Source of the DNA: an uncultured Gammaproteobacteria bacterium
GTDB lineage: Bacteria; Patescibacteriota; Patescibacteriia; S139-126
Reading direction: 5' to 3'
NCBI GenBank assembly: GCA_964493305.1
Contig: CAZBLW010000001.1
Span: 384,037 to 448,036, forward strand
DNA: 64,000 nt
The notes under the pieces are model-generated. The model had not been told where the DNA came from and ran no database searches. It was given only the letters and a program-made list of their open reading frames with translations. The position numbers and the translations under genes are program-made. Shown here one piece after another: positions 1 through 32,398 of the stretch; position 1 is the first letter of the stretch; every line of letters begins with the position of its first letter.

Positions 1-119
1 AACAGCAGTAGTATAGTATTTTTTTGCCATTTTTTGTATAGATAAATCATGTTCTAAATTATACCATATTTGTTAATAAACTATTTAAAAATATTAGTTT
101 TTTTGCTAAAATTAAGCTG

Positions 120-1166
120 ATGGCTAGGACTAATAAAAATAATGCTAGTAATATTATGGAGATAAATCCCTGGGATATTAAATTGTCCGAGTTTCCAAAA
201 TCAGGTAGTTTGACTGAAAAAATCCAATTTATTTTGTCATTGGCAATTTTAGCACCATCAACTCACAATAGTCAGCCCTGGTTATTTCGTCTGCAAGGCG
301 ATATTTGTCAGGTTGAGGTCGATACGAGTATTAAGTTGCCCAACTCAGACCCAACGGGAAGGGATTTGTATATCAGCCATGGCTGTTTAGCTGAGGCTAT
401 CGAGCAGGTGGCAAATTATTTTGGCTTTAGCTGTGTTTTTCAGTTTATTGATAATAATAATCTTATTTTTCAAGTCCAGTTTATCCCTAGTGAAGCTGAG
501 GTTAGTAAAAAAAGTATGATTGAAGCTTTGCTTAGCAGGGTAAATGTAAGAGGTATGTTTGACAAAAAAGAAATACCGGCTCAACTTAATGAACAACTAA
601 CAATTTATTCAGATGAACAAGTCAAATTTGTTTTATTGTCAGGTAAAGACAAAACAAAATATTTAGCCCAACTGACTGCTCAAGCAATTGCTGAAGCTCA
701 CAATAATAAAAATTTTCGTTACGAGCTATCTCAGTGGATGCGACCTAGTCTAACTAAAAAATTAGATGGCCTAGTTGGCTACAATTTACGTATTCCGTTT
801 TTACTGTCGTTTATCTTTCCACCTTTAATCAAATTATTAAACCTGGGTAAATTATTTGCTCAACTTAACCGTCAAGCCATAGCCAGTGCTCCAGCGGCTG
901 GGATTATGTTATCACCAGAGGATACACCTATTAGTTGGTGGCAAGTTGGTCGACGTTTTTTTAGACTAAATTTATATCTTAATTCAATCGGATTAAGAAC
1001 CTCAATTTATGTCGGAGCGATTGAAATAGGTAATCATCGTGCAGAGTTAAAAAAATTTATCAACACTGATTGGCTGCCGCAATTTTCTTTTGTAGTTGGT
1101 TATATGTCAGGCAATTTCCGTCATAGCCCCCGCTATAATTTAAAGTCAAGATTAATCCATGACTAA
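120..1166 (+). CDS. nitroreductase-family oxidoreductase (SagB-type dehydrogenase-like), 348 aa
   Basis: N-terminal motif APSTHNSQPW is typical of the nitroreductase/SagB family. No SD is visible. The stop overlaps the next gene start by 8 nt. Confidence 0.55.
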   Translation: MARTNKNNASNIMEINPWDIKLSEFPKSGSLTEKIQFILSLAILAPSTHNSQPWLFRLQGDICQVEVDTSIKLPNSDPTGRDLYISHGCLAEAIEQVANYFGFSCVFQFIDNNNLIFQVQFIPSEAEVSKKSMIEALLSRVNVRGMFDKKEIPAQLNEQLTIYSDEQVKFVLLSGKDKTKYLAQLTAQAIAEAHNNKNFRYELSQWMRPSLTKKLDGLVGYNLRIPFLLSFIFPPLIKLLNLGKLFAQLNRQAIASAPAAGIMLSPEDTPISWWQVGRRFFRLNLYLNSIGLRTSIYVGAIEIGNHRAELKKFINTDWLPQFSFVVGYMSGNFRHSPRYNLKSRLIHD

Positions 1167-2223
1167 ACTTAAGTTCACCAACCAAACAAAACCTTACCTA
1201 TTTAATTTGTCTAACCAAAAACAGACCGGTTTGTTTGCTAAACTCTGGCGAGATAGATCGATTAAAAAAGTTGATGAATATTCCAACCAAACGGAAGAAT
1301 ATCAAATCGTATTAGACCCAGCGGGTAGAAAAAATATAAAATCATTACCGCAGGCAATATGGGTGTATTACCCTTGGTTGAAAACTATGGTTAAAATTTT
1401 AGCTAAGCCGGCTTTTAGAAGTTTACGCTTGTCCAGAAATAATGGTTTTTTAAATACTAACCAACAGCAAAAATTTTTAAATATGAAGGTAGGGATTGCG
1501 GGTATGAATGTTGGTTATCATGCTGCTCTTTGTTTGGCTTTAGCCGGGGGTGCAGAAACCATGAAATTTGCCGATCCTGATATTTTGACCGTTTCCAGTT
1601 TAAATAGATTCCGTGCAAGTTTAAAGGATTTGGGTGGCAATAAAACAAATTTAACAGCTGAACAAGTGTATGAAATTGATCCATTTTATAAAATTGATTT
1701 ATATTCTGAAGGTATTACCACCAAAAATATTGATAAATTTTTATTAAAACCAAAAATTGATGTTTTAATTGAAGAGATGGATAATTTACCCTTAAAAGTT
1801 ATGATAAGAAAAAAAGCACGTCAACATGGTATACCAGTCATTATGGTTACTGGCAATGGAGTAAATTTGGTTTTAGATATTGAAAGATATGATATAAATA
1901 AGAGACAGAAGATACTAAATGGTTTTTTACCTGAAAAATTTTTGACAGATAATATTGTTTTATCCCAGCTAACCAAAACAGAAAAAATTAATCTGGCGAG
2001 GGATTTTATAGGTAAAAAATTTTTAGCGCCAGAACTAGTTTCGGCTTTTGCTAAGGTTGGTAAAACTTTAGCAGCTATTCCGCAGTTAGCAGAAACATCT
2101 TATTTAAGAGGGTTGGTTTTAGGGCAAGTTGTGAAAAAATTGGCCCTGGGTCAATCAGTACCAGCTGGTCGTTATCAAATAAAAATGGATAATATATTTT
2201 CCAATGAAATTAGAAAAAATTGA
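1159..2223 (+). CDS. ThiF/MoeB/HesA-family E1-like adenylyltransferase with ~110 aa N-terminal extension
   Basis: GIAGMNVGYHAALCLALAGG is a Rossmann nucleotide-binding loop. ADPDILTVSSLNRF matches the E1 motif (VDxDxVexSNLnRQ). Confidence 0.6.
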   Translation: MTKLKFTNQTKPYLFNLSNQKQTGLFAKLWRDRSIKKVDEYSNQTEEYQIVLDPAGRKNIKSLPQAIWVYYPWLKTMVKILAKPAFRSLRLSRNNGFLNTNQQQKFLNMKVGIAGMNVGYHAALCLALAGGAETMKFADPDILTVSSLNRFRASLKDLGGNKTNLTAEQVYEIDPFYKIDLYSEGITTKNIDKFLLKPKIDVLIEEMDNLPLKVMIRKKARQHGIPVIMVTGNGVNLVLDIERYDINKRQKILNGFLPEKFLTDNIVLSQLTKTEKINLARDFIGKKFLAPELVSAFAKVGKTLAAIPQLAETSYLRGLVLGQVVKKLALGQSVPAGRYQIKMDNIFSNEIRKN

Positions 2224-3271
2224 CGTAAAAAATTTTGCCGAATATAAAAATCACGAAGTGGTTTATCATTTTATTGATCCCACGGTGAAGTTGGAGGGCT
2301 ATATAGGTATTCATAATACCACCAGGGGACCAGCTACTGGTGGCACGAGGTGGTGGTATTATCAAGATAAAAACGATGCAATTAGAGATGTTTTGGATTT
2401 ATCTCAAGCCATGACTAACAAGTGCTTAATGGCTGATTTAAATTTTGGCGGTGGTAAGGCAGTTATCTTAAAACAAGGAGAAAAAACACCAGCCTTACTT
2501 ACTGCTTATGCGCAGGTAATTGATAGTTTAGCTGGTATTTTTACTACTGGTCCTGATGTAGGTATTGATGAAGAAGATACTTTGTTTATGTCAAAATTTA
2601 GTAAATATATTTTAGGTCATAAGCCAGTTCAGGGAGAACGTTATAGTACATCTGATATGGCTGCTAGAGGTGTGTATGTCGCAATTAAGTCAACTATAAA
2701 AAAAGTTACTGGTCAGACAAATTTAAATAATATATCCGTAGCCATAAAAGGTTTAGGTAAAGTAGGAGGTGAGTTGGCTAGATTGTTATTGGCTGATGGT
2801 AGTGAAGTTTATGGTTCCGAAATTGATCAACCGCGACTCGATTATATTGTGGCCAATTTACCAGGAATAAAGATCGTAGCTCCAGATAAAATTTCTACTC
2901 TACCCGTAACTATTTATTCACCTTGTGCAGTAGGTCATGAGTTCAATGAAGAAAATATAAAAAATATCACCGCTCAATATATTATTGGTGGTGCCAATAA
3001 TCAGTTGACTTCGGACAAAGTGGGTGATTATTTTCATAATCAGGGTATTTTATACGCACCAGATTATGTTGTTAACGCCGGTGGCCTCATCAATATAACC
3101 GATGAATTAGCTGAAGATGGTTATTCGGCTGATCGAGTGTTGACCAGAGTCAATAATATTGGACAAACCTTAGTAGCTATTATTGATAGATCAAAACGCG
3201 ACAATTTACCCACTTACAAAGTAGCTGATCTTTTAGCAACTGATAAATTAAATTTTTCTTATGCCCAATAA
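2204..3271 (+). CDS. Glu/Leu/Phe/Val-family amino acid dehydrogenase
   Basis: GGGK catalytic lysine motif (LNFGGGKAV). NAD-binding GLGKVGGELARLL. Confidence 0.7.
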   Translation: MKLEKIDVKNFAEYKNHEVVYHFIDPTVKLEGYIGIHNTTRGPATGGTRWWYYQDKNDAIRDVLDLSQAMTNKCLMADLNFGGGKAVILKQGEKTPALLTAYAQVIDSLAGIFTTGPDVGIDEEDTLFMSKFSKYILGHKPVQGERYSTSDMAARGVYVAIKSTIKKVTGQTNLNNISVAIKGLGKVGGELARLLLADGSEVYGSEIDQPRLDYIVANLPGIKIVAPDKISTLPVTIYSPCAVGHEFNEENIKNITAQYIIGGANNQLTSDKVGDYFHNQGILYAPDYVVNAGGLINITDELAEDGYSADRVLTRVNNIGQTLVAIIDRSKRDNLPTYKVADLLATDKLNFSYAQ

Positions 3272-4787
3272 GTTACTTAATTATTTTAAAGAAGTCCATC
3301 AAGATTTTTCTCACAACTATTTAATTGATTATCTTAATTTGGATTTTCCCACTGAGAGCAAAGATTTTTTAGCCATTTCTTTTGATCAGCTCCTGAAAGC
3401 AAGTCAGGAAAAACAGCTGAATTTATTTCAACAGATGGCAGCTAAAGTTCCAGCGTATAAAGATTTTTTACAAAAAAATAGTATTAAACCAGAAAAAATA
3501 GTAACTCACCAAGATTTATCAGCCGTTCCTTTTATTGATAAGAATAATTATCTCCGGCAGTACTCTATACCTGAGCTTTGTTGGCCAGGCAGTTTTCATC
3601 AACAAAATATGGTCAGTGTTAGTTCCGGATCATCCGGTGATCCTTTTTTTTGGTTTCGTTCTAGTTGGCAAGAGTTTGAAGCCACTTTGAATCATGAAAT
3701 GCTATTGCGAGATTTTTTTGCTTGTGATAATCAGCGTACGTTATTGATTGTTAGTTTTGCCATGGGCATGTATGTAGCTGGAGTTTTAACACAAAATTGT
3801 GGTCAACACATATCACAAAAAGGCTTACCTCTGACAGTAATTAGTCCCGGCATCAGTATCACCGAAAACGTAAGAATTATTAAAGAATTAGCTAAGTATT
3901 ATGATCAAATAATTATTGCTGGTTATCCGCCTCTGGTTAAGGATGTAATTGATTTTGGTCAGCAGCAAGGAATTGATTGGTCCAGTTTTAAAATTAAATT
4001 TATTTTTGCCGGCGAGGGTTTTAGTGAGAAATGGCGCCAAACTTTACTGCACAAAGCGGGAGTAACTGATTTAGTCAAAGATAGTTTTAGTATTTATGGC
4101 TCGGCTGATGCAAATATGTTGGCCTTTGAAACAATTTTGTCAATCAAAATTAGACAGTTAGTTGATGCTGATAGTAAGAAATATTCTGACTTTTACGATC
4201 AACAAAATAGATTACCTGGTATATTCCAATTCAATCCATTGAGTCGTTACTTTGAACAGTTGGCGGATGAACTGATTTTTTCCGCTGATAGTGGTATACC
4301 GTTGTTGAGATACAACATTCATGATGTGGGCAAGGTTATTGGTTTTACTGATATGCAAGCTAAAATAGGTAATGAACATTTTGCGGGCAATAATTATTCT
4401 TGGCCATTTGTATTGCTGTACGGCAAAGATAAAACCATAAGTTTTTACGGTTTATTAATTTACCCTGATAATATTAGAATTGCTTTAGAAAACGATGTTC
4501 TAAAAGAAAAAGTTTCGGGGCGGGTTTTATTTGCTAGAAAAGAGGATGTTGAGGGCAATCATTATCTGCAAGCAGAGATAGAATTGGCACCAAAAGTTGA
4601 ACCAAATAATGATTTAGCTAGTTTAATCCAACAAGAAATTACCAAGTCTTTAAGTCAAGCCAATATGGAATATAACAAATTAAGATCTTATTTGGGTGAG
4701 CGAGCTTTGCCAAAAATTAATTTATATCCTTATGGTTCTTCAGAAATATTTTCTCGTACTAATAAACAAAATTGGTTAACCAGCTAA
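3261..4787 (+). CDS. adenylate-forming enzyme, phenylacetate-CoA ligase (PaaK) / coenzyme F390 synthetase family
   Basis: P-loop-like SSGSSGDPFFW resembles PaaK SSGTTGKP. Overlaps the previous gene by 11 nt. Confidence 0.55.
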   Translation: MPNKLLNYFKEVHQDFSHNYLIDYLNLDFPTESKDFLAISFDQLLKASQEKQLNLFQQMAAKVPAYKDFLQKNSIKPEKIVTHQDLSAVPFIDKNNYLRQYSIPELCWPGSFHQQNMVSVSSGSSGDPFFWFRSSWQEFEATLNHEMLLRDFFACDNQRTLLIVSFAMGMYVAGVLTQNCGQHISQKGLPLTVISPGISITENVRIIKELAKYYDQIIIAGYPPLVKDVIDFGQQQGIDWSSFKIKFIFAGEGFSEKWRQTLLHKAGVTDLVKDSFSIYGSADANMLAFETILSIKIRQLVDADSKKYSDFYDQQNRLPGIFQFNPLSRYFEQLADELIFSADSGIPLLRYNIHDVGKVIGFTDMQAKIGNEHFAGNNYSWPFVLLYGKDKTISFYGLLIYPDNIRIALENDVLKEKVSGRVLFARKEDVEGNHYLQAEIELAPKVEPNNDLASLIQQEITKSLSQANMEYNKLRSYLGERALPKINLYPYGSSEIFSRTNKQNWLTS

Positions 4788-4790
4788 TGT

Positions 4791-6389
4791 ATGTCTGACT
4801 TAGTTTTTCTTAGTTTAATTTTTACCGTACTAGCCAATTTAACTTTGATTATTGTTGTATATTTCTACGGTAAAAAAAATATCAATCAAATTTTCTTTGT
4901 CCTACTGGTTTTGTCACTTACTTTTTGGGGAGTAAATAATTTTTTTTCAGTAACCGCTAAACCCGAGCAGTCATTGTTTTGGATTCGGTCGGTAATGTTT
5001 TTTGCTGCTCCTCAGACTTTTTTGTTGTATTTATTTATATCCACTTTTGCTTATAAAGCCTGGGATTTTTCGAAATGGGGCAAATATTTTCTAGTTAGTT
5101 TGTGTTTTTTGATGATGTTGTTGACGCACACTCCTTTTATTTTTTCTTCCATCGTAATTGCAGGCAATGGACAAGTTTCGCCACAGCCGGGTTTACTCAT
5201 GCCCCTGCTCGGTGGTTATATATTTATTTTTGCTTTGTTATCAGTTTATAAATTGGTTAAAAGATACAGAAAGTCTTCAGGACAAGAAAGGAAACAGTGG
5301 CAGTATTTATCTTTTGGTTTGTTTTGGACTTTTTTATTGATGCTCAGTTTAAATTATTTGGCGGTTATAGTTTTCAATAACACCAATTTTGTTCGTTATG
5401 GTCACTTATATCATCTACCGTTGATTGTTTTGTTTTCTTATAGTTTGGTAAAGCATAAATTGATGGATGTAAAATTAATAGCTTCGCAATCTTTAACCAT
5501 TTTACTTTCTTTGTTTTTATTATTTAAAGTACTGACTTCGGAAGATACGGTGAATTTAGTGATTAATATGGTGATTTTTACAGTAGTGGTGATAATTAGT
5601 ATTTGGTTGGTGCGCAATATTAATAAAGAAATAAAACAAAGAGAAAAACTTGAAATATTAACAAAAGATTTGCAAGTTGCTAATGAACGACTAAAAAAAT
5701 TAGACGAAGCCAAAACAGAATTTTTATCAATAACCTCGCACCAATTACGCACTCCTTTATCGGCTATTAAGGGTTATTTATCTATGTTGCAAGAGGGTGA
5801 TTTTGGTAAGATGTCCAAAAAACAAGCGGATATCGTGGGTATTTTACTGAGGAATTCAGAGCGTTTAATTCGATTAATCAATATCTTTTTAAATATTTCC
5901 CGTATAGAATCTGGAAGATTGAAAATAAATAAAAGTTTAAATGATATCAGTCGTTTACTTGATGATATTATCAAGTCATTGGCTATTGAGGCCGGTACTA
6001 AGCATATTAAGATTGAGTTTGAAGAAAACGACGTTCCCTTGTTTCAGTTTGATATGGACAAAATGGCTGACGTACTTATCAATTTGATTGACAATGCTAT
6101 TAAATATACTCCTATCGGTGGTTGGGTTAGGGTGTCTGTAAAAAATATGGAAAAATATGTATTAGTCAAAGTCCAGGACAACGGCAAAGGTATTTCTTAT
6201 GAAGAATTGGATCAATTGTTCCAAAAATTTAAACGAGGTAAGGATATTAATCGAGTTGACACAACTGGAGTGGGATTGGGTTTATATATTGCTAAAAAAA
6301 TTATTGAAGGACACGGGGGAAATATTTGGGCAGAAAGCGAAGGCGAAAATAAAGGCACTACTTTTAAATTTACCTTGCCTCTAGAATGA
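4791..6389 (+). CDS. membrane sensor histidine kinase (about 7 TM helices N-terminal, HisKA + HATPase_c)
   Basis: H-box ITSHQLRTPLSAIKGY, N-box LIDNAIKYT, G-boxes VQDNGKGIS and GTGLGLYIAKKI. No response regulator is adjacent. Confidence 0.85.
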   Translation: MSDLVFLSLIFTVLANLTLIIVVYFYGKKNINQIFFVLLVLSLTFWGVNNFFSVTAKPEQSLFWIRSVMFFAAPQTFLLYLFISTFAYKAWDFSKWGKYFLVSLCFLMMLLTHTPFIFSSIVIAGNGQVSPQPGLLMPLLGGYIFIFALLSVYKLVKRYRKSSGQERKQWQYLSFGLFWTFLLMLSLNYLAVIVFNNTNFVRYGHLYHLPLIVLFSYSLVKHKLMDVKLIASQSLTILLSLFLLFKVLTSEDTVNLVINMVIFTVVVIISIWLVRNINKEIKQREKLEILTKDLQVANERLKKLDEAKTEFLSITSHQLRTPLSAIKGYLSMLQEGDFGKMSKKQADIVGILLRNSERLIRLINIFLNISRIESGRLKINKSLNDISRLLDDIIKSLAIEAGTKHIKIEFEENDVPLFQFDMDKMADVLINLIDNAIKYTPIGGWVRVSVKNMEKYVLVKVQDNGKGISYEELDQLFQKFKRGKDINRVDTTGVGLGLYIAKKIIEGHGGNIWAESEGENKGTTFKFTLPLE

Positions 6390-6433
6390 CCACGACTTGT
6401 GGATATCTTTGCAGTAGGCAATTTTTTAACTTT

Positions 6434-6442
6434 TGCTATAAT
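6434..6442 (+). promoter_or_regulatory. extended -10 promoter element TGcTATAAT
   Basis: TGn plus TATAAT sits about 45 nt upstream of the acidic micro-ORF. No good -35 is present, which is acceptable for extended -10 promoters. Confidence 0.4.
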
Positions 6443-6487: not shown

Positions 6488-6613
6488 ATGTCCAATGACG
6501 ACTTTATGAAGGAAGATGACAATGAAGAAGAGGGTTATGAAGATGATTTCGAAGATGAAGACGAAGATGATATGTCGGATGATATGAACGAAGATGAAGA
6601 CGAAGATATGTAG
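6488..6613 (+). CDS. 41-aa highly acidic micropeptide (MSNDDFMKEDDNEEEGYEDDFEDEDEDDMSDDMNEDEDEDM)
   Basis: Intact ATG..TAG ORF below the ORF-track cutoff. It lies between its own promoter-like element and a strong intrinsic terminator. Its 41 residues are overwhelmingly Asp/Glu. Confidence 0.4.
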   Translation: MSNDDFMKEDDNEEEGYEDDFEDEDEDDMSDDMNEDEDEDM

Positions 6614-6624
6614 ATCTAATATTG

Positions 6625-6652
6625 CCCCGGCTTAGGCCGGGGTTTATTTTTT
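6625..6652 (+). terminator. rho-independent terminator (CCCCGGC-TTAG-GCCGGGG + T-run)
   Basis: Perfect 7-bp GC stem followed by TTTATTTTTT. Confidence 0.75.
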
Positions 6653-7630: not shown

Positions 7631-8824
7631 ATGAAACTAAAAACTTTAAATAAGACGACAAAGTTATGCGGGAAAAAAGTTTTACTCAGGGTAGATTTGA
7701 ACGTCAAGTTAGGATCAGACAAAAAGGTTGATCAAAAGGAAGATTTTAAATTGCAAAGAATATTACCGACTATAAAATATTTACAAACCCAAGGGGCTAA
7801 AATAATTTTACTGTCCCATTTAGGTCGTCCCAATGGTCGGGTGGTGCCAACTTTGTCATTACAACCGGTAGTTGATAGGTTAATTACTTTATTGGCGCAA
7901 AATATCAAGTTAATAAAAAAACAGCCTTGGTTAGATATAAAAAAGCAAATCGACCAGTTAGTAAATGGTCAGATTGTTGTTTTAGAAAACTTACGCTTTT
8001 TTAAAGGAGAAGATACCAACGATAATATTTTGGCAAAACAGTTAGCGAGTTTGGGTGATATTTATGTCAATGATGCTTTTGCTGCTTGTCATCGTGAGGC
8101 AGCTTCAATGGTAGCAATTACCAAATTTTTACCGACCTATGCCGGTTGGTTAATGGCCAGCGAAGTTCAACAGTTGAGTAGCTTAATAAATAAGAAAACT
8201 AAACCCTATCTGACAATTTTGGGTGGAGCCAAAATTAGTACCAAAATTGATTTGGTGGCCAAATTTGTCAAAATATCTGACTATGTTTTAGTAGGTGGGG
8301 GATTGGCCAATAATTTTTTATTAGCTGATGGTAAATCAATAGGCAAATCAATTGTAGAAAAAAAATATTTAAGTAAACTAAAAAAAGTTTTACGGCAAAA
8401 TCGTAAAAAAATCTTATTACCAATTGACGTGACGGTTGATAAGACAACTACCAAGTTGGTGGAAGCAACACAAAAACTAGTTGGTGATATAAAAAAAGAC
8501 GAAAAAATCATTGATATTGGAACAAACACAGTTAGATCCTGGTCACAAATAATCAAGCGAGCAAAATTGATAGTTTGGAATGGTCCTTTAGGAATCGTCG
8601 AAGATAGGAAAGCTAGTCATGCTTCACGAGCCTTAGCTGAGTTGATTGCTGCTAGGTCAAAGCGAGCGTGTTTCAGTGTCGTTGGTGGGGGAGAAACTGT
8701 TTGGTTAATTCAGGACATGAATATTTTTGATAGTTTTGATTACGTATCAACTGGCGGGGGAGCAATGATAGAATTTTTAGAAGGCAAAACTTTGCCAGGG
8801 ATTAAACCTTTATTAAAAAAATGA
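7631..8824 (+). CDS. pgk: phosphoglycerate kinase
   Basis: KVLLRVDLNV and ILLSHLGRP signatures. Confidence 0.9.
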   Translation: MKLKTLNKTTKLCGKKVLLRVDLNVKLGSDKKVDQKEDFKLQRILPTIKYLQTQGAKIILLSHLGRPNGRVVPTLSLQPVVDRLITLLAQNIKLIKKQPWLDIKKQIDQLVNGQIVVLENLRFFKGEDTNDNILAKQLASLGDIYVNDAFAACHREAASMVAITKFLPTYAGWLMASEVQQLSSLINKKTKPYLTILGGAKISTKIDLVAKFVKISDYVLVGGGLANNFLLADGKSIGKSIVEKKYLSKLKKVLRQNRKKILLPIDVTVDKTTTKLVEATQKLVGDIKKDEKIIDIGTNTVRSWSQIIKRAKLIVWNGPLGIVEDRKASHASRALAELIAARSKRACFSVVGGGETVWLIQDMNIFDSFDYVSTGGGAMIEFLEGKTLPGIKPLLKK

Positions 8825-9321
8825 TCAAAAAAGGTTTTACTTTGATTGAAGTTTTAGTAGTCATAGCTATTATCGGAGTTTTGAGTACTCTGACAGTAGT
8901 GGCTGTAAGATCTGCTAGAGAAAAAGCAAAAATTGCTAAAGCCCAACACGATATTGATACTATTTATACCGCTATGTCACAGTTGATGATTGATACTGGT
9001 GAATGGCCCAACCACCAAACTCCTGAAGAAATAAATACCGGTGGTAATAACGAAATTTGGGATTTAACAGCAGCCGTAGCTGGTATTGTAGTCACTGATG
9101 GCGGTTATTTAAAATGGGCCGGACCTTATATGGGCAGTATACCGCTTGATCCTTGGGGTAATAATTATTTTTTTGACACTGACTATTCTTTAAATTCCGA
9201 TGAAAAACCTTGTGCTGGCGGAAGCGGTTGTCACAACGGGGCGGTAGTTGGTTCTTTTGGGCCTGATGGTGTTGGGCAAAATGTCTATAATCAAGATGAT
9301 ATAATTAAAATTCTAAAATAA
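8821..9321 (+). CDS. type IV pilin / pseudopilin-like protein (prepilin N-terminal methylation motif)
   Basis: KKGFTLIEVLVVIAIIGVL is a class III signal peptide. A C-terminal Cys pair lies in CAGGSGCHNG. ATGA overlap with pgk. Confidence 0.8.
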   Translation: MIKKGFTLIEVLVVIAIIGVLSTLTVVAVRSAREKAKIAKAQHDIDTIYTAMSQLMIDTGEWPNHQTPEEINTGGNNEIWDLTAAVAGIVVTDGGYLKWAGPYMGSIPLDPWGNNYFFDTDYSLNSDEKPCAGGSGCHNGAVVGSFGPDGVGQNVYNQDDIIKILK

Positions 9322-10617: not shown

Positions 10618-12198
10618 ATGAACAACACTACTACCAACCGAAAACCTAATGTTTTAATTGTGATTGATGGTTTAGGTATAGCCAATGATCAACCTGACAA
10701 CCCTGTGGAAATGGCCAATACCCCCACCTTTAAATTGTTGTGGGAAAAATATTACCACACCTCATTAGCTGCTGCCGGTGAAGACGTTGGCCTAATGCCC
10801 AATCAAGATGGTAACAGCGAAGCTGGTCATATGAATATTGGTGCTGGTAGAGTTGTTGGTCAAGATGTTTCCCTTATTAATCACAGCATAGCTGACGGTA
10901 CTTTTTTTAAAAATTCTGCATTTATCGCAGCTATTTCTCATGTCCAAAAAAACAATAGTAATTTACATCTCATGGGTTTATTGTCAGATCGACACTCGGG
11001 CCATGTTAACCCCAAGCATTTAGAAGCATTACTAACTCTGATACGCCAGCACAATTTAAAAAACAATGTGTATTTACATTTATTTACCGACGGTAGAGAT
11101 ACGCCCAAACACGCCGGACTTGGTTTTTTACGAACTTTGGAAGAACAACTTCAGCCCCATGAACGGATCGCCACTATTATGGGTCGGGTTTTATTGGATC
11201 GCAAAAAAAACTGGCTCAAGACCAAGGTAGCCTATGAAGCTCTGACCATGGGAATCGGTAAAATTGTTTCTAAACCAGAAAAAGCCATTCGCGAAGCTTA
11301 TGCCTGCGGTGAAACTGATGAATTTATCAGTCCGACCATTATCAGTTTGGATAACGATCCCAGTTATGGTCGAATTAATGATAATGATGCGATAATTTTT
11401 TATAATTTACGTTCTGATCGTGCTAGACAATTGACTAAACCTTTTGTTCAAGTAGAATTTGAAACCAAAAATAAAGATTCTTTTACGCGAAAAAAACTCT
11501 TGAAAAATTTGGTTTTTGTGGCCATGACTGATTTTGGACCTGATCTTGATCATGTTTTAACTGCCTATCCGTCAGCTGATATTTCTGGTACCCTGCCTAA
11601 CGCTTTGCGCAATCTAAAACAACTTTATATTGCTGAGGGTGAAAAGTATGCTCATATTACTTATTTTTTCAATGGTGGACACGATCGACCGGTTGCAGGA
11701 GAAGACAGGATTTTTGTACCTTCTCCAAATGTAGATTCCTATGATCAAACCCCGGAAATGTCGGCCAATAAAATTACCGAAATTGTAATTGATAATATTA
11801 AACAAAATCAATATGACTTTTATGCCATCAATTTTGCCAATCCAGATATGATTGGTCATACCGGTAATTTAGGAGCAGCTATCAAAGCTATTGAGTGTGT
11901 TGATAAAAATATTGGTCTTATTTTACAAGAGGTAATAGCGCGTGATGGTCTTTTATTTATTACAGCTGATCACGGCAACGTTGAGGAGATAATAAATGTT
12001 CAAACTGGCGAAATTGATACCGAGCACTCTAGTAACCCCGTACCTTTTTTTATTGCCACCAATCATCAGATTTATCCGACACACAAGTTACCGAACGGGC
12101 GCTTGGCTGATGTAGCACCGACAATTTTGTCAGCTATGAATATACCTAAAACCAGAGAAATGACAGGTAAAAATTTATTAGCACCGTCGAGTATATGA
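10618..12198 (+). CDS. gpmI: 2,3-bisphosphoglycerate-independent phosphoglycerate mutase (iPGM), copy 1
   Basis: NSEAGHMNIGAGR catalytic Ser motif. DGRD and TADHGN metal-site motifs. Confidence 0.85.
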   Translation: MNNTTTNRKPNVLIVIDGLGIANDQPDNPVEMANTPTFKLLWEKYYHTSLAAAGEDVGLMPNQDGNSEAGHMNIGAGRVVGQDVSLINHSIADGTFFKNSAFIAAISHVQKNNSNLHLMGLLSDRHSGHVNPKHLEALLTLIRQHNLKNNVYLHLFTDGRDTPKHAGLGFLRTLEEQLQPHERIATIMGRVLLDRKKNWLKTKVAYEALTMGIGKIVSKPEKAIREAYACGETDEFISPTIISLDNDPSYGRINDNDAIIFYNLRSDRARQLTKPFVQVEFETKNKDSFTRKKLLKNLVFVAMTDFGPDLDHVLTAYPSADISGTLPNALRNLKQLYIAEGEKYAHITYFFNGGHDRPVAGEDRIFVPSPNVDSYDQTPEMSANKITEIVIDNIKQNQYDFYAINFANPDMIGHTGNLGAAIKAIECVDKNIGLILQEVIARDGLLFITADHGNVEEIINVQTGEIDTEHSSNPVPFFIATNHQIYPTHKLPNGRLADVAPTILSAMNIPKTREMTGKNLLAPSSI

Positions 12199-13766
12199 AA
12201 GCACACACCCCCGTAGTATTAGTAGTACTTGATGGTTGGGGAATAGCCCCACCTTCCATCGGTAATGCCATCACCTTAGCACAAACCCCGAACTACGACA
12301 GTTTTTTATTGAACTATCCTTCTTTTAATATTCAAGCCTCAGGCGAATCAGTAGGTCTACCTTGGGGAGAAATGGGTAATTCGGAAGTAGGTCATTTATC
12401 CTTAGGGTCAGGTAAAATTTTATATCAAAATTTACCTCGTATTACTAGAGCAATTTCCGATGGTAGTTTTGTAACCAATGCAGCTTTTGAGCAAGCCTTT
12501 GAACACGTTAAACAAAACAATTCCAAATTACACATTATCGGTTTGGTTTCTGATGGTGGTGTGCATAGTTATAATGAACATCTATATGCACTTATTGAAA
12601 CCGCCAAATTAAATAAAGTGAAACAACTTTATATTCATGCTTTTTTGGACGGCAGAGATACAGCTAAAAATAGCGGTTTAGGTTATATTGTTGCTTTACA
12701 AAAAGTTTTACATAATGTTGGTTTGGGTAGAATCGCCACAATTTCTGGTAGGTTTTATGCCATGGATCGAGATAATCGTTGGGATAGAATTGCCGCTACT
12801 TATAATGCCATGGTATTGGGTCAAGCCGCGGCAAGTTATCAAGATCCAATAGAAGCAGTTAATCAATCTTATCAGCAAGGTGTATTTGATGAAGAGTTTG
12901 TGCCCACGATAATTTTAGATACACAGAACCAACCAACAGTAGTTGGTGACAATGATGCCATTATTTACTTTAATTTCCGTAGCGACCGAGCTAGGGAACT
13001 AACTAAAGCGTTGGTATTAAGTGATTTTAATGGATTTGCCAGGGAGAAAGTGTGTCAAAATGTATTTTTTGTAACTATGACCGAATATGAAAAAGATTTG
13101 CCAGTAACCATAGCTTTTCCTCCTGAGGTTGTTTCTATGCCCTTGGCTAAGGTGATAGCTGAAAATGGTGGCAAACAGGTTCATATAGCCGAAACTGAAA
13201 AATATGCTCACGTTACTTTTTTCTTCAACGGAGGTATTGAGAAACCATTTACTGGTGAGGAACATATCATGGTGCCGTCTCCTAAAATTTCTAGTTATGA
13301 TAAAAAACCGGAAATGTCTGCTTATGATGCCACCAAAAAATTATTAGCAGCCATCAATCAAGGTGATTATATGTTTTTATTGATCAATTATGCCGCGCCG
13401 GATATGGTGGCTCATACCGGAAATTTAGCAGCCACAATTAAAGGCATTGAAGCGGTTGATGATTGTTTAGGAAAAATCGCTGAAGCCGTATTGGGGCGAG
13501 ATGGAGTTTTGTTAATTACCGCTGATCACGGCAATGCTGAAGAATTAATCAAACTTCGTAGCGGCGAAATCGACAAAGAGCACTCGTCATCACCCGTACC
13601 ATTTTTGATCATTGGTAATCAATGGTTAGGGCAAGGAAGGTTAGCCAATAAGAACGAACTTTATGCTAGCACTCCGGTGGGAGTTTTAGCTGATGTAGCT
13701 CCCACAATTTTAACACTGTTGAATTTACCCATCCCTCCAGAAATGACTGGTAAATCATTATTATAA
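12195..13766 (+). CDS. gpmI: 2,3-bisphosphoglycerate-independent phosphoglycerate mutase (iPGM), divergent tandem paralog
   Basis: MGNSEVGHLSLGSG, DGRD and TADHGN motifs. ATGA overlap with copy 1. Confidence 0.85.
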   Translation: MKAHTPVVLVVLDGWGIAPPSIGNAITLAQTPNYDSFLLNYPSFNIQASGESVGLPWGEMGNSEVGHLSLGSGKILYQNLPRITRAISDGSFVTNAAFEQAFEHVKQNNSKLHIIGLVSDGGVHSYNEHLYALIETAKLNKVKQLYIHAFLDGRDTAKNSGLGYIVALQKVLHNVGLGRIATISGRFYAMDRDNRWDRIAATYNAMVLGQAAASYQDPIEAVNQSYQQGVFDEEFVPTIILDTQNQPTVVGDNDAIIYFNFRSDRARELTKALVLSDFNGFAREKVCQNVFFVTMTEYEKDLPVTIAFPPEVVSMPLAKVIAENGGKQVHIAETEKYAHVTFFFNGGIEKPFTGEEHIMVPSPKISSYDKKPEMSAYDATKKLLAAINQGDYMFLLINYAAPDMVAHTGNLAATIKGIEAVDDCLGKIAEAVLGRDGVLLITADHGNAEELIKLRSGEIDKEHSSSPVPFLIIGNQWLGQGRLANKNELYASTPVGVLADVAPTILTLLNLPIPPEMTGKSLL

Positions 13767-20801: not shown

Positions 20802-20829
20802 TTGACATCGTATTTTAATGTGTTACAAT
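20802..20829 (+). promoter_or_regulatory. sigma70-type promoter TTGACA-N16-TGtTACAAT (extended -10) for rplJ-rplL
   Basis: Near-consensus -35 and extended -10, about 140 nt upstream of rplJ. Confidence 0.6.
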
Positions 20830-20835
20830 ATTTTT

Positions 20836-20967
20836 ACACCGCAGACAATAGGTTCTATATTGATTAATGCAAGTTTTTGCGCCTATCGAGGTCACAATCC
20901 TTTTTTTGGATCTAGGTCGAGTACCAAGTAAAAGTCTGCGTTTTAACGCAGTTTTTTGTTTATATTT
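20836..20967 (+). promoter_or_regulatory. rplJ (L10) leader with terminator-like attenuator hairpin at 20936-20957
   Basis: About 130-nt 5-prime UTR. CTGCGTT-TTAA-AACGCAG plus TTTTTTG sits just upstream of the rplJ start. This is consistent with L10(L12)4 autoregulatory leaders. Confidence 0.4.
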
Positions 20968-32323: not shown

Positions 32324-32398
32324 TGGTACCGGTACGGGGAATCGAACCCCGATTACCAGGATGAGAACCTGGCGTCCTAACCGTTAGACGATACCGGC
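32324..32398 (-). tRNA. tRNA-Glu (anticodon CTC) with encoded CCA
   Basis: Minus-strand cloverleaf: GCCGGTA acceptor, D-loop AACGGTTA, anticodon stem CCAGG/CCTGG with loop TTCTCAT, T-arm CGGGG-TTCGATT-CCCCG, then ACCA. Confidence 0.8.

Follow-up and report, generated by a model that had tools for sequence, protein, structure and literature searches.

Oxazolone synthetases, represented by OxzB, TyzB/TyzC and TrzS, were characterized as a family between 2021 and 2025. TrzS (Rv1355c) converts N-acyl-tryptophan to N-acyl tryptazolone by an ATP-dependent cyclization followed by an O2-dependent desaturation, the cyclization being abolished by a D217A exchange (PMC12856293). An R540A exchange in TrzS makes the saturated oxazolone build up, and oxazolones do not survive acids or alcohols (PMC12856293). 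The separate proteins TyzB and TyzC cyclize and desaturate N-acyl-tyrosine and N-acyl-phenylalanine (PMC10404671), and the OxzB fusion protein carries out the same conversion on these substrates (bioRxiv 10.1101/2020.06.11.147165). An acyltransferase gene adjoins the synthetase genes in the known oxazolone systems, and a signaling role has been suggested for the product of OxzAB, as this product is labile (bioRxiv 10.1101/2020.06.11.147165). Here, we analyze a five-gene cassette at positions 120-6389 of a 64,000-nt stretch of DNA (the window; positions 384,037 to 448,036 of contig CAZBLW010000001.1, assembly GCA_964493305.1) from a member of the Patescibacteria, or candidate phyla radiation (CPR). 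We suggest, with a probability of roughly 0.55, that the cassette encodes a variant, found in CPR/Patescibacteria, of the N-acyl-oxazolone pathway and that this variant is coupled to a membrane sensor kinase of its own.

A preliminary description of the locus, made from the sequence alone, had not recognized the gene combination as a described pathway. For the pair of a ThiF-like protein and a flavin-dependent oxidase (FDO) this view has to be revised, as the ThiF/FDO part is an already described type of pathway. For the full combination it holds: in the searchable literature, we found no paper on CPR bacteria and oxazolones, on the combination of ThiF, nitroreductase and phenylacetate-CoA ligase, or on quorum sensing in CPR bacteria. 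The context in which the pair is embedded, with a PaaK-like ligase in place of an acyltransferase, an optional dehydrogenase and an obligatory kinase with a seven-transmembrane (7TM) domain, appears to be undescribed.

A five-gene operon with a probable split oxazolone synthetase-type pair

The cassette comprises five co-oriented open reading frames (ORFs), all on the plus strand. They are predicted to encode an Acg/FDO-type flavin oxidase that would act as a Cα/Cβ desaturase (ORF1, 120-1166, 348 aa), a ThiF-like ATP-dependent cyclase of the Rv1355c/TrzS clade (ORF2, 1159-2223, 354 aa), a short-type NAD(P)-dependent amino-acid dehydrogenase of the Leu/Phe/Trp family (ORF3, 2204-3271, 355 aa), an adenylate-forming enzyme of an uncharacterized PaaK-like subfamily (ORF4, 3261-4787, 508 aa) and, as the terminal gene, a multi-transmembrane (TM) sensor histidine kinase (ORF5, 4791-6389, 532 aa). 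ORF1/ORF2, ORF2/ORF3 and ORF3/ORF4 overlap by 8, 20 and 11 nt, respectively, and a spacer of 3 nt separates ORF4 from ORF5, the ATG of which lies 4 nt past the final base of the ORF4 stop codon; these are exactly the junctions given in the preliminary description. The G+C content of the operon (0.33-0.35) is like that of the remainder of the window. The upstream neighbor is divergently oriented (minus-strand ATG near position 30; Pfam VKOR), so that the 5' end of the cassette lies inside the window. We conclude that the five genes are genuinely co-transcribed and make up a cassette for the biosynthesis of a small molecule.

The ThiF-like protein provides the clearest link to the described systems. 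ORF2 scored 261 bits (E 1.6e-77) against NF005901, the model of the Rv1355c family, over profile positions 8-340 of 722, a score fourfold higher than those with other ThiF, MoeB and TcdA models (65 bits or less). In BLASTP, it could be aligned to the ThiF half of an Rv1355c-family protein from Rhodococcus with 32% identity over 338 aa (E 1e-53), and this alignment runs from end to end, taking in the N-terminal W[VI]YYPW extension as well as the C-terminal region past the Pfam domain. When plasmids were searched with ORF2 by tblastn, the best annotated matches were Rv1355c-family proteins of Rhodococcus and Mycolicibacterium or actinomycete ThiF proteins. Residues G115/G119, D139, S146/N149/R150, K162 and E206/D208 are invariant in an alignment of 21 sequences that includes the Rhodococcus fusion protein. 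D208, which is part of an EExD motif, is the likely equivalent of TrzS D217, an assignment made by motif, with no direct alignment to TrzS of M. smegmatis. The closest solved structure by sequence is that of TcdA (E 6e-6), and ORF2 reached 34.8 bits on the TcdA model, whose cutoff is 304. The protein contains a single Cys residue (C125) and has neither a CxxC zinc site nor a catalytic Cys pair nor a rhodanese domain.

ORF1 would correspond to TyzC and to the C-terminal half of TrzS and OxzB. It matched NF047509 (Acg-family FMN oxidoreductase) with 169 bits (E 1.8e-49), nitroreductase Pfam matches being weak, and among the NCBIfam models it also matched the C-terminal FDO halves of the ThiF-oxidase fusion models PRK14851 and PRK07877. 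As a genuine Rv1355c-family protein likewise matches the Acg model (117 bits), an Acg-type score is what is expected of the oxidase of an oxazolone synthetase. While a phmmer search of PDB sequences gave no match to ORF1, Foldseek comparison of its AlphaFold2 model (predicted local distance difference test score [pLDDT] 91.3) returned M. smegmatis Acg (MsAcg; PDB 2YMV) at the top (E 1.5e-16, TM-scores 0.73/0.78), followed by dimeric nitroreductases at about 4e-6. The same MsAcg structure was named as the closest to the oxidase domain of TrzS by the authors of that work (PMC12856293). In addition, a profile of 30 CPR homologues of ORF1 aligned in hhalign with the oxidase half of the Rhodococcus Rv1355c-family fusion protein with a probability of 97% (E 5.6e-11). 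A PSTHNxQPW motif (residues 46-54), R81, R140/R144, R200 and R338 are invariant in the ORF1 alignment. In-frame ATG codons are found at positions 120 and 156; the true start may be the latter, because the homologues lack about 12 residues at the N-terminus and the model is of low confidence for residues 1-10.

Two metagenomic loci carry ThiF-FDO fusions, single ORFs of about 745 aa within otherwise typical cassettes (L121:440-2683 and L132:8767-10998). The L132 fusion matched the Rv1355c model with 452.8 bits in one stretch (24-713 of 722). These fusions constitute Rosetta-stone evidence for the pairing of the ThiF-like protein with the FDO. Based on these results, we consider it likely that ORF1 and ORF2 form a ThiF/FDO pair of the oxazolone synthetase type, probably a split member of a distinct subfamily closely related to the TrzS equivalog.

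Two plasmid loci showed further arrangements of Rv1355c- or ThiF-type genes. On a Kitasatospora plasmid (NZ_CP108248.1; L087:4224-6074), a 616-aa "ThiF family" protein matches ORF2 with its C-terminal half; a gene for a ketoacyl-ACP synthase III follows and a LuxR-type regulator is encoded nearby. This arrangement may represent a further architecture of the oxazolone type in which the acyl group is supplied differently. On plasmid pLP1 of Rhodococcus qingshengii, a gene encoding a GGDEF domain (L086:1815-2966) stands beside a plasmid-borne Rv1355c-family gene, which echoes a published remark on the proximity of trzAS to cyclic-di-GMP genes.

Conservation of the cassette among CPR bacteria

Conservation was assessed in two independent surveys. 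In the first, one genome per GTDB species was scanned with an alignment of ORF4 homologues, and the best 80 of 485 loci were kept; in the second, metagenome contigs were scanned with a ThiF alignment, yielding 80 more loci. The cassette was present in 30 of the best 80 genome loci (31 with one further locus). Its hosts are Saccharibacteria, Nealson-, Yanofsky-, Lloyd-, Terry-, Andersen-, Berkel-, Doudna- and Wirthbacteria, other Patescibacteria and unnamed bins. Two cassette contigs (L013 and L085) stem from bins labeled Gammaproteobacteria; these could be mis-binned CPR contigs or reflect genuine transfer.

Presence was counted in those loci whose anchor gene is flanked by 5 kb or more on either side, 16 of them from genomes and 24 from metagenomes. 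Among the 16 genome loci, anchored on the PaaK-like gene, ThiF was found in 16, the FDO in 13, the 7TM kinase in 16, an ELFV dehydrogenase in 4, an aminotransferase in 3 and a response regulator in 4. The corresponding counts for the 24 metagenome loci, anchored on ThiF, were 24 for the FDO, 23 each for the PaaK-like protein and the 7TM kinase, 8 for the ELFV dehydrogenase, 1 for the aminotransferase and 7 for a response regulator. In the pooled well-flanked loci, a Leu/Phe/Trp-type dehydrogenase is encoded in 12/40, and a class I/II aminotransferase takes its place in 4/40; the aminotransferase provides a functionally equivalent route between an amino acid and a 2-oxo acid.

Because the same genes are found together in more than 100 independent loci and in at least 13 gene orders, the arrangement is far beyond chance; the preliminary description had named absence of such co-localization as an observation that would speak against a cassette. 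No further conserved neighbor family was detected in the related loci. Homologues of the ThiF, FDO and PaaK-like proteins retrieved by protein searches are nearly all CPR proteins that are nameless or generically named.

A putative route to a sensed N-acyl oxazolone

In the route that we propose, ORF4 would use ATP to activate a carboxylic acid and would join this acid to the amino group of a probably aromatic amino acid, giving rise to an N-acyl amino acid without the use of acyl-CoA. ORF2 would then adenylate the carboxylate of this N-acyl amino acid, upon which the amide oxygen would close a 5(4H)-oxazolone ring, as reasoned from the chemistry of TrzS, TyzB and OxzB. By analogy to TyzC and TrzS, ORF1 would desaturate the Cα/Cβ bond to yield a conjugated oxazolone. 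ORF3, or an aminotransferase in some lineages, might tune the supply of amino acid or 2-oxo acid substrates. In the most speculative step, the kinase, whose sensor consists of TM segments only, would detect the lipophilic, labile product, a precursor or a hydrolysis product, and would signal to a response regulator encoded elsewhere.

In its most far-reaching form, this proposal would turn the cassette into a self-contained module of autoinducer synthase and receptor, in which scavenged acids and aromatic amino acids are converted, without acyl-CoA, to a labile N-acyl oxazolone that is sensed by the kinase, and in which the kinase acts via receiver-only regulators and, in some lineages, via receiver-PilB-type ATPase fusions on type IV pili and host attachment. 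We regard this extended version as unlikely.

The terminal sensor kinase and its possible cue

ORF5 matched the Pfam families HisKA_7TM (PF16927; 35.4 bits, gathering score 28.6), HisKA (62.9 bits) and HATPase_c (99.3 bits). Beyond the 7TM domain it has two more TM segments, i.e., nine hydrophobic segments with loops of at most 31 aa, followed by a coiled coil that leads into the H-box, and it has no extracytoplasmic domain. All cassette kinases share a homologous TM sensor domain (E 1e-18 to 1e-89, about 280 residues). The kinase gene lies 3' of every core gene in 88/88 loci that hold a core gene and a kinase gene, and in 74/88 it starts within 150 nt of the preceding gene. We conclude that the kinase belongs to the cassette system. 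That it senses the product of the pathway seems possible to us but doubtful.

As for the output of the kinase, genes for fusions of a receiver domain with a T2SSE (PilB/GspE-type) ATPase were found two genes after the cassette kinase gene, beyond a gene for a receiver-only regulator, in three loci (L011:10941-12701, L093:10201-11934 and L101:13963-15747); a further one (L009:9813-10349) is probably of the same kind and is cut by the contig end. These fusions, seen in three or four related Yanofskybacteria-like loci only, hint at an output of the kinase to a pilus or to secretion.

The ThiF/oxidase chemistry could be the same and the product nevertheless serve as an effector (antimicrobial, host-directed or a membrane-active lipid) or as a stress metabolite, the kinase sensing a cue from the host or the environment and governing, or just accompanying, the operon. 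Links of oxazolones to stress and antimicrobial relatives among the N-acyl-tyrosines have been discussed in the literature, and the receiver-only regulators and receiver-PilB-type ATPase fusions near some cassettes point to outputs beyond autoregulation. We hold this explanation to be rather unlikely, as it leaves unexplained why the same TM sensor domain is kept as the terminal gene across all these loci and gene orders, and as an exclusively membrane-embedded sensor suits a lipophilic ligand.

A PaaK-like enzyme as a possible stand-in for an acyltransferase

ORF4 has no Pfam match and showed weak similarity to PaaK/F390 proteins (E 2e-10); on TIGR02155, the PaaK equivalog model, it reached 39.6 bits with a cutoff of 646.3. 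Its AlphaFold2 model (pLDDT 86.7) has a clear PaaK fold. The best Foldseek matches were PaaK1/2 and BT_0428, followed by AjiA1, ClxA, a 2-hydroxyisobutyryl-CoA ligase (HCL) and McbA, of which AjiA1, ClxA and McbA ligate without CoA. Adenylation motifs are invariant, comprising SSGSSGxP at 121, YGSAD at 279, RYNIHD at 350 and the C-terminal K502. Judged by the modeled fold and these motifs, ORF4 is probably a member of the PaaK superfamily, though not PaaK itself. Phenylacetate catabolism by PaaK was rejected as an identity, as were TcdA and ThiF/MoeB-type cofactor biosynthesis for ORF2, based on model scores and gene context; no paa genes were found among the Pfam-annotated neighbors of the window cassette.

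We give even odds to the idea that ORF4, as a predicted ATP-dependent N-acyl-amino-acid synthetase, is the N-acylating enzyme that replaces OxzA, TyzA or TrzA. Alternatively, ORF4 would be a conventional aryl- or acyl-CoA ligase that feeds an unlinked acyltransferase, leaving the standard OxzA-type route in place. Its nearest folds (PaaK1/2, BT_0428 and 2-hydroxyisobutyryl-CoA ligase) would fit such an enzyme, and sources annotate the ORF4 family as phenylacetate-CoA ligase. We nevertheless consider this route improbable: no conserved acyltransferase lies near any of the more than 100 cassettes, whereas it is adjacent in the known systems, the score of ORF4 on the PaaK model is far below the cutoff, and the CoA-independent PaaK-like ligases AjiA1 and ClxA are also among the fold matches. 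Furthermore, CPR genomes usually lack fatty-acid biosynthesis and often lack CoA biosynthesis. A TrzA-like acyltransferase gave no phmmer match at E ≤ 10 in any locus or in the window, in a search of limited sensitivity with a single query, an unannotated 260-aa gene product encoded beside a Rhodococcus Rv1355c-family gene, whose identity as TrzA was inferred from this position.

In about 50 of the 80 genome loci, the ORF4 homologue stands alone, without conserved neighbors; the hosts are methanotrophs, Xenococcaceae, Chloroflexia, Chthonomonadales and actinomycetes. No dedicated NCBIfam model exists for ORF4 or its relatives. In a neighbor-joining tree, 49/50 of the stand-alone proteins form one pure sister clade, with 36-40% identity to ORF4, apart from the cassette-linked PaaK-like proteins (loci L017, L019, L025-L027, L029, L031-L035, L037, L039, L041-L043, L045-L050, L053-L056, L058, L060, L061, L063-L077 and L080-L084). 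The remaining protein, from L016, clusters with those linked to cassettes; the L016 contig breaks off shortly after the gene. We had considered the stand-alone homologues outside CPR bacteria as a clue to function and discarded them, given their separate clade and their lack of conserved neighbors and of a dedicated model.

An optional dehydrogenase and the nature of the substrate

ORF3 matched both Pfam ELFV_dehydrog_N and ELFV_dehydrog above cutoff. Among PDB entries, it is closest to leucine dehydrogenase (LeuDH; E 7e-67), followed by tryptophan dehydrogenase (5e-61) and phenylalanine dehydrogenase (PheDH; 4e-44), and it contains the catalytic motifs GGGK, MTNK and PDVG, which harbor the catalytic Lys, Lys and Asp residues. 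On the equivalog model of the Trp dehydrogenase ScyB, it scored 263.9, below the cutoff of 600. At the positions of LeuDH L40/A113/V291/V294, ORF3 carries T/G/L/I, and the G and L residues are kept in 5/5 cassette dehydrogenases examined. In our view, G and L at the A113 and V291 positions correspond to the G124/L307 pair of PheDH-type enzymes, which widens the pocket so that it accommodates aromatic side chains; for this specificity pair we found no support in the literature. The G/L pair of the cassette dehydrogenases may be read as a hint of an aromatic substrate. From its sequence, ORF3 would serve as an optional accessory enzyme for the interconversion of an amino acid, probably an aromatic one, and the corresponding 2-oxo acid, and the earlier idea of a product derived from an aromatic acid or an amino acid remains plausible.

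The dehydrogenase or aminotransferase, by pointing to 2-oxo-acid and amino-acid chemistry, could also be accommodated by another heterocycle: ORF4 would join two amino-acid-derived units, the ThiF-like protein would close a six-membered ring (diketopiperazine or pyrazinone), and the oxidase would desaturate it in a manner resembling albonoursin formation. Diketopiperazine desaturation is indeed listed among the activities of the nitroreductase family. We view this scheme as very improbable, since the ThiF-like protein and the oxidase belong specifically to oxazolone synthetase families and the dehydrogenase is optional; moreover, we know of no PaaK-like enzymes that activate α-amino acids.

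The last alternative, in which azoline-type machinery for peptides that are made on the ribosome and modified after translation (a SagB-like plus a SagC/E1-like protein) acts on a peptide, or in which ORF2 belongs to an E1-like C-terminal activation or sulfur-carrier system, is suggested by a ThiF-fold protein adjoining an FMN nitroreductase-fold protein and is largely refuted, as the window cassette has no YcaO, ThiS or MoaD among its Pfam-annotated neighbors (about 7 kb on each side), no conserved short ORF or precursor peptide was found near 32 cassettes (only antisense shadows of housekeeping genes, in at most four loci), ORF1 is an Acg match, and ORF2 is an adenylation-competent member of the TrzS clade with a single Cys. 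These observations sort the proposals of the preliminary description, which had compared the pair to SagB and a ThiF/E1-like partner. Correct were its notion that a ThiF-type adenylating enzyme and an FMN enzyme together form a heterocycle, its statement that YcaO and a carrier are missing, and its expectation of FMN-binding and adenylation residues, the catalytic residues being present in ORF1 and ORF2. The SagB/SagC identity was not upheld: the NCBIfam matches of ORF1 at E ≤ 0.01 comprised only Acg and ThiF-FDO fusion models and not the SagB model TIGR03605, and none of its top 50 fold matches is a SagB/McbC-type structure. The precursor candidates and the E1-like activation system that it had envisaged likewise found no support.

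Several observations weigh against an oxazolone pathway variant with a dedicated sensor as the explanation of the cassette. ORF2, half the length of the Rv1355c family protein, falls below the curated Rv1355c equivalog cutoff (261 vs 476 bits), and even the fused homologue at L132 stays under 476 bits. In BLASTP, ORF1 and the oxidase half of the fusion protein are barely similar, their match not being significant, and no FDO was found beside 3/16 well-flanked genome loci. Known oxidases of this type need O2, and many CPR bacteria live anaerobically. ORF4 might simply be an acyl-CoA ligase, its closest folds being CoA ligases. Most cassettes lack the dehydrogenase, which makes its role peripheral. 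Co-transcription is equally compatible with a kinase that regulates the operon in response to another cue. Finally, and in agreement with the preliminary description of an orphan 7TM sensor kinase, a hidden Markov model built from cassette-linked receivers detected no response regulator in the 64-kb window, and a Pfam-annotated copy of the locus, which includes 6.7 kb upstream, contains no regulator in the roughly 7 kb that flank the cassette on each side.

Surroundings of the operon

Within the 89-nt divergent intergenic region 5' of ORF1, a consensus scan detected a promoter-like site (TTTAAA-17-TAAAAT with TG; 84-112, plus strand) with 9/12 matches, which is weak evidence. Directly after the kinase stop codon there is only a weak 5-bp hairpin (6390-6402); the first strong hairpin resembling an intrinsic terminator comes further downstream (6624-6643, plus strand) and has an 8-bp stem with seven GC pairs and a T-run. 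An ORF for an extremely acidic 41-aa protein, MSNDDFMKEDDNEEEGYEDDFEDEDEDDMSDDMNEDEDEDM, lies in between (6488-6613, plus strand; called as a gene in a Logan contig). It has a promoter-like site of its own (6415-6442) and is followed by the strong hairpin; it has no Pfam match and is not conserved beside other cassettes, and its membership in the system is uncertain.

Farther downstream, a type IV pilin-like gene (8821-9321; N_methyl and a weak T2SSG match) is located between the genes for phosphoglycerate kinase and enolase and overlaps the stop codon of the former. Downstream of the enolase gene, two tandem, overlapping genes (10618-12198 and 12195-13766) encode paralogues of cofactor-independent phosphoglycerate mutase (Metalloenzyme/iPGM_N). 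The only Rfam matches above gathering score in the window are an L10 leader (20821-20967, plus strand) and a tRNA (32327-32398, minus strand).

Implications

The physiological role of bacterial oxazolones has been called a major open question by the authors of the pathway studies. A synthetase that is always co-transcribed with one specific membrane sensor provides a concrete candidate receptor. To our knowledge, CPR/Patescibacteria have minimal genomes with very few recognized biosynthetic or signaling systems. Maintenance of the module across Saccharibacteria, many Parcubacteria lineages and Berkel-, Doudna- and Wirthbacteria suggests that it is likely important for the episymbiotic lifestyle. 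If our proposal is correct, the exchange of an acyl-CoA transferase for an ATP-dependent ligase would be a case of non-orthologous displacement, fitting organisms that usually lack fatty-acid metabolism, and a function would be defined for a large, uncharacterized PaaK-like subfamily. If, in addition, the product were an autoinducer, the cassette would represent the first cell-cell signaling system described in CPR/Patescibacteria, and bacterial oxazolones would have, for the first time, a receptor and a physiological role.

Comparison with known systems

TrzAS (Rv1356c/Rv1355c; M. tuberculosis, M. smegmatis, R. jostii), the N-acyl-tryptazolone pathway (PMC12856293), shares with the cassette the families of the ThiF-like cyclase and the Acg-like oxidase; ORF2 aligns over its full length, with the adenylation Asp and the ATP residues kept, and fused versions that come nearly to the family cutoff exist in CPR cassettes. 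In contrast to TrzAS, the window contains two separate genes in reversed order (oxidase first), a PaaK-like ligase and no TrzA acyltransferase, and an obligatorily linked 7TM kinase, and the hosts are CPR bacteria, whereas TrzAS is found in mycolic-acid actinomycetes. In its split organization, the pair resembles TyzACB (Rv2336, Rv2337c, Rv2338c), the N-acyl-tyrazolone pathway, in which a stand-alone ThiF homologue, TyzB, is encoded beside TyzC, a likewise stand-alone, monomeric FDO of about 340-370 aa (PMC10404671). However, TyzA is an acyl-CoA transferase resembling N-acyl-homoserine lactone synthases, and TyzACB has no linked kinase. By NCBIfam scores, ORF2 is nearer to the Rv1355c model. 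OxzAB of Pseudoalteromonas rubra follows a shared logic, with an N-acyl aromatic amino acid being converted to an oxazolone by ATP-dependent cyclization and flavin-dependent oxidation (bioRxiv 10.1101/2020.06.11.147165). It differs from the cassette in that OxzB is fused, OxzA uses acyl-CoA, the host is proteobacterial and no receptor is known.

Individual components have parallels outside these pathways. TcdA, the tRNA ct6A dehydratase, also has a ThiF fold and closes an oxazolone ring by ATP-dependent dehydration, as envisaged for ORF2; it differs from ORF2 in having tRNA as its substrate and in lacking a partner oxidase. The CoA-independent PaaK-like/ANL ligases AjiA1, NatL2 and ClxA (benzoxazole assembly) and the amide-bond synthetase McbA share the fold of ORF4 (Foldseek E 8e-17 to 5e-11) and set a precedent for the direct formation of an ester or amide from an acyl-adenylate; at the sequence level they are distant from ORF4 (identity to AjiA1/ClxA/McbA-type enzymes 12-17%), and their substrates are aryl acids. 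In the LuxM/LuxN and CqsA/CqsS pairs, the gene for a signal synthase lies next to that for a histidine kinase with a sensor made of TM helices only, which detects a lipophilic autoinducer. By its TM-only architecture and synteny, the cassette kinase may be likened to LuxN and CqsS as a functional analog, with no claim of membership; sequence homology between the sensor domains was not seen, and the chemistry is different. Taken together, the cassette departs from the described oxazolone systems in two features, i.e., it has no adjacent acyltransferase and scores below the equivalog cutoff, and it adds to them a ligase and an obligatory sensor kinase.

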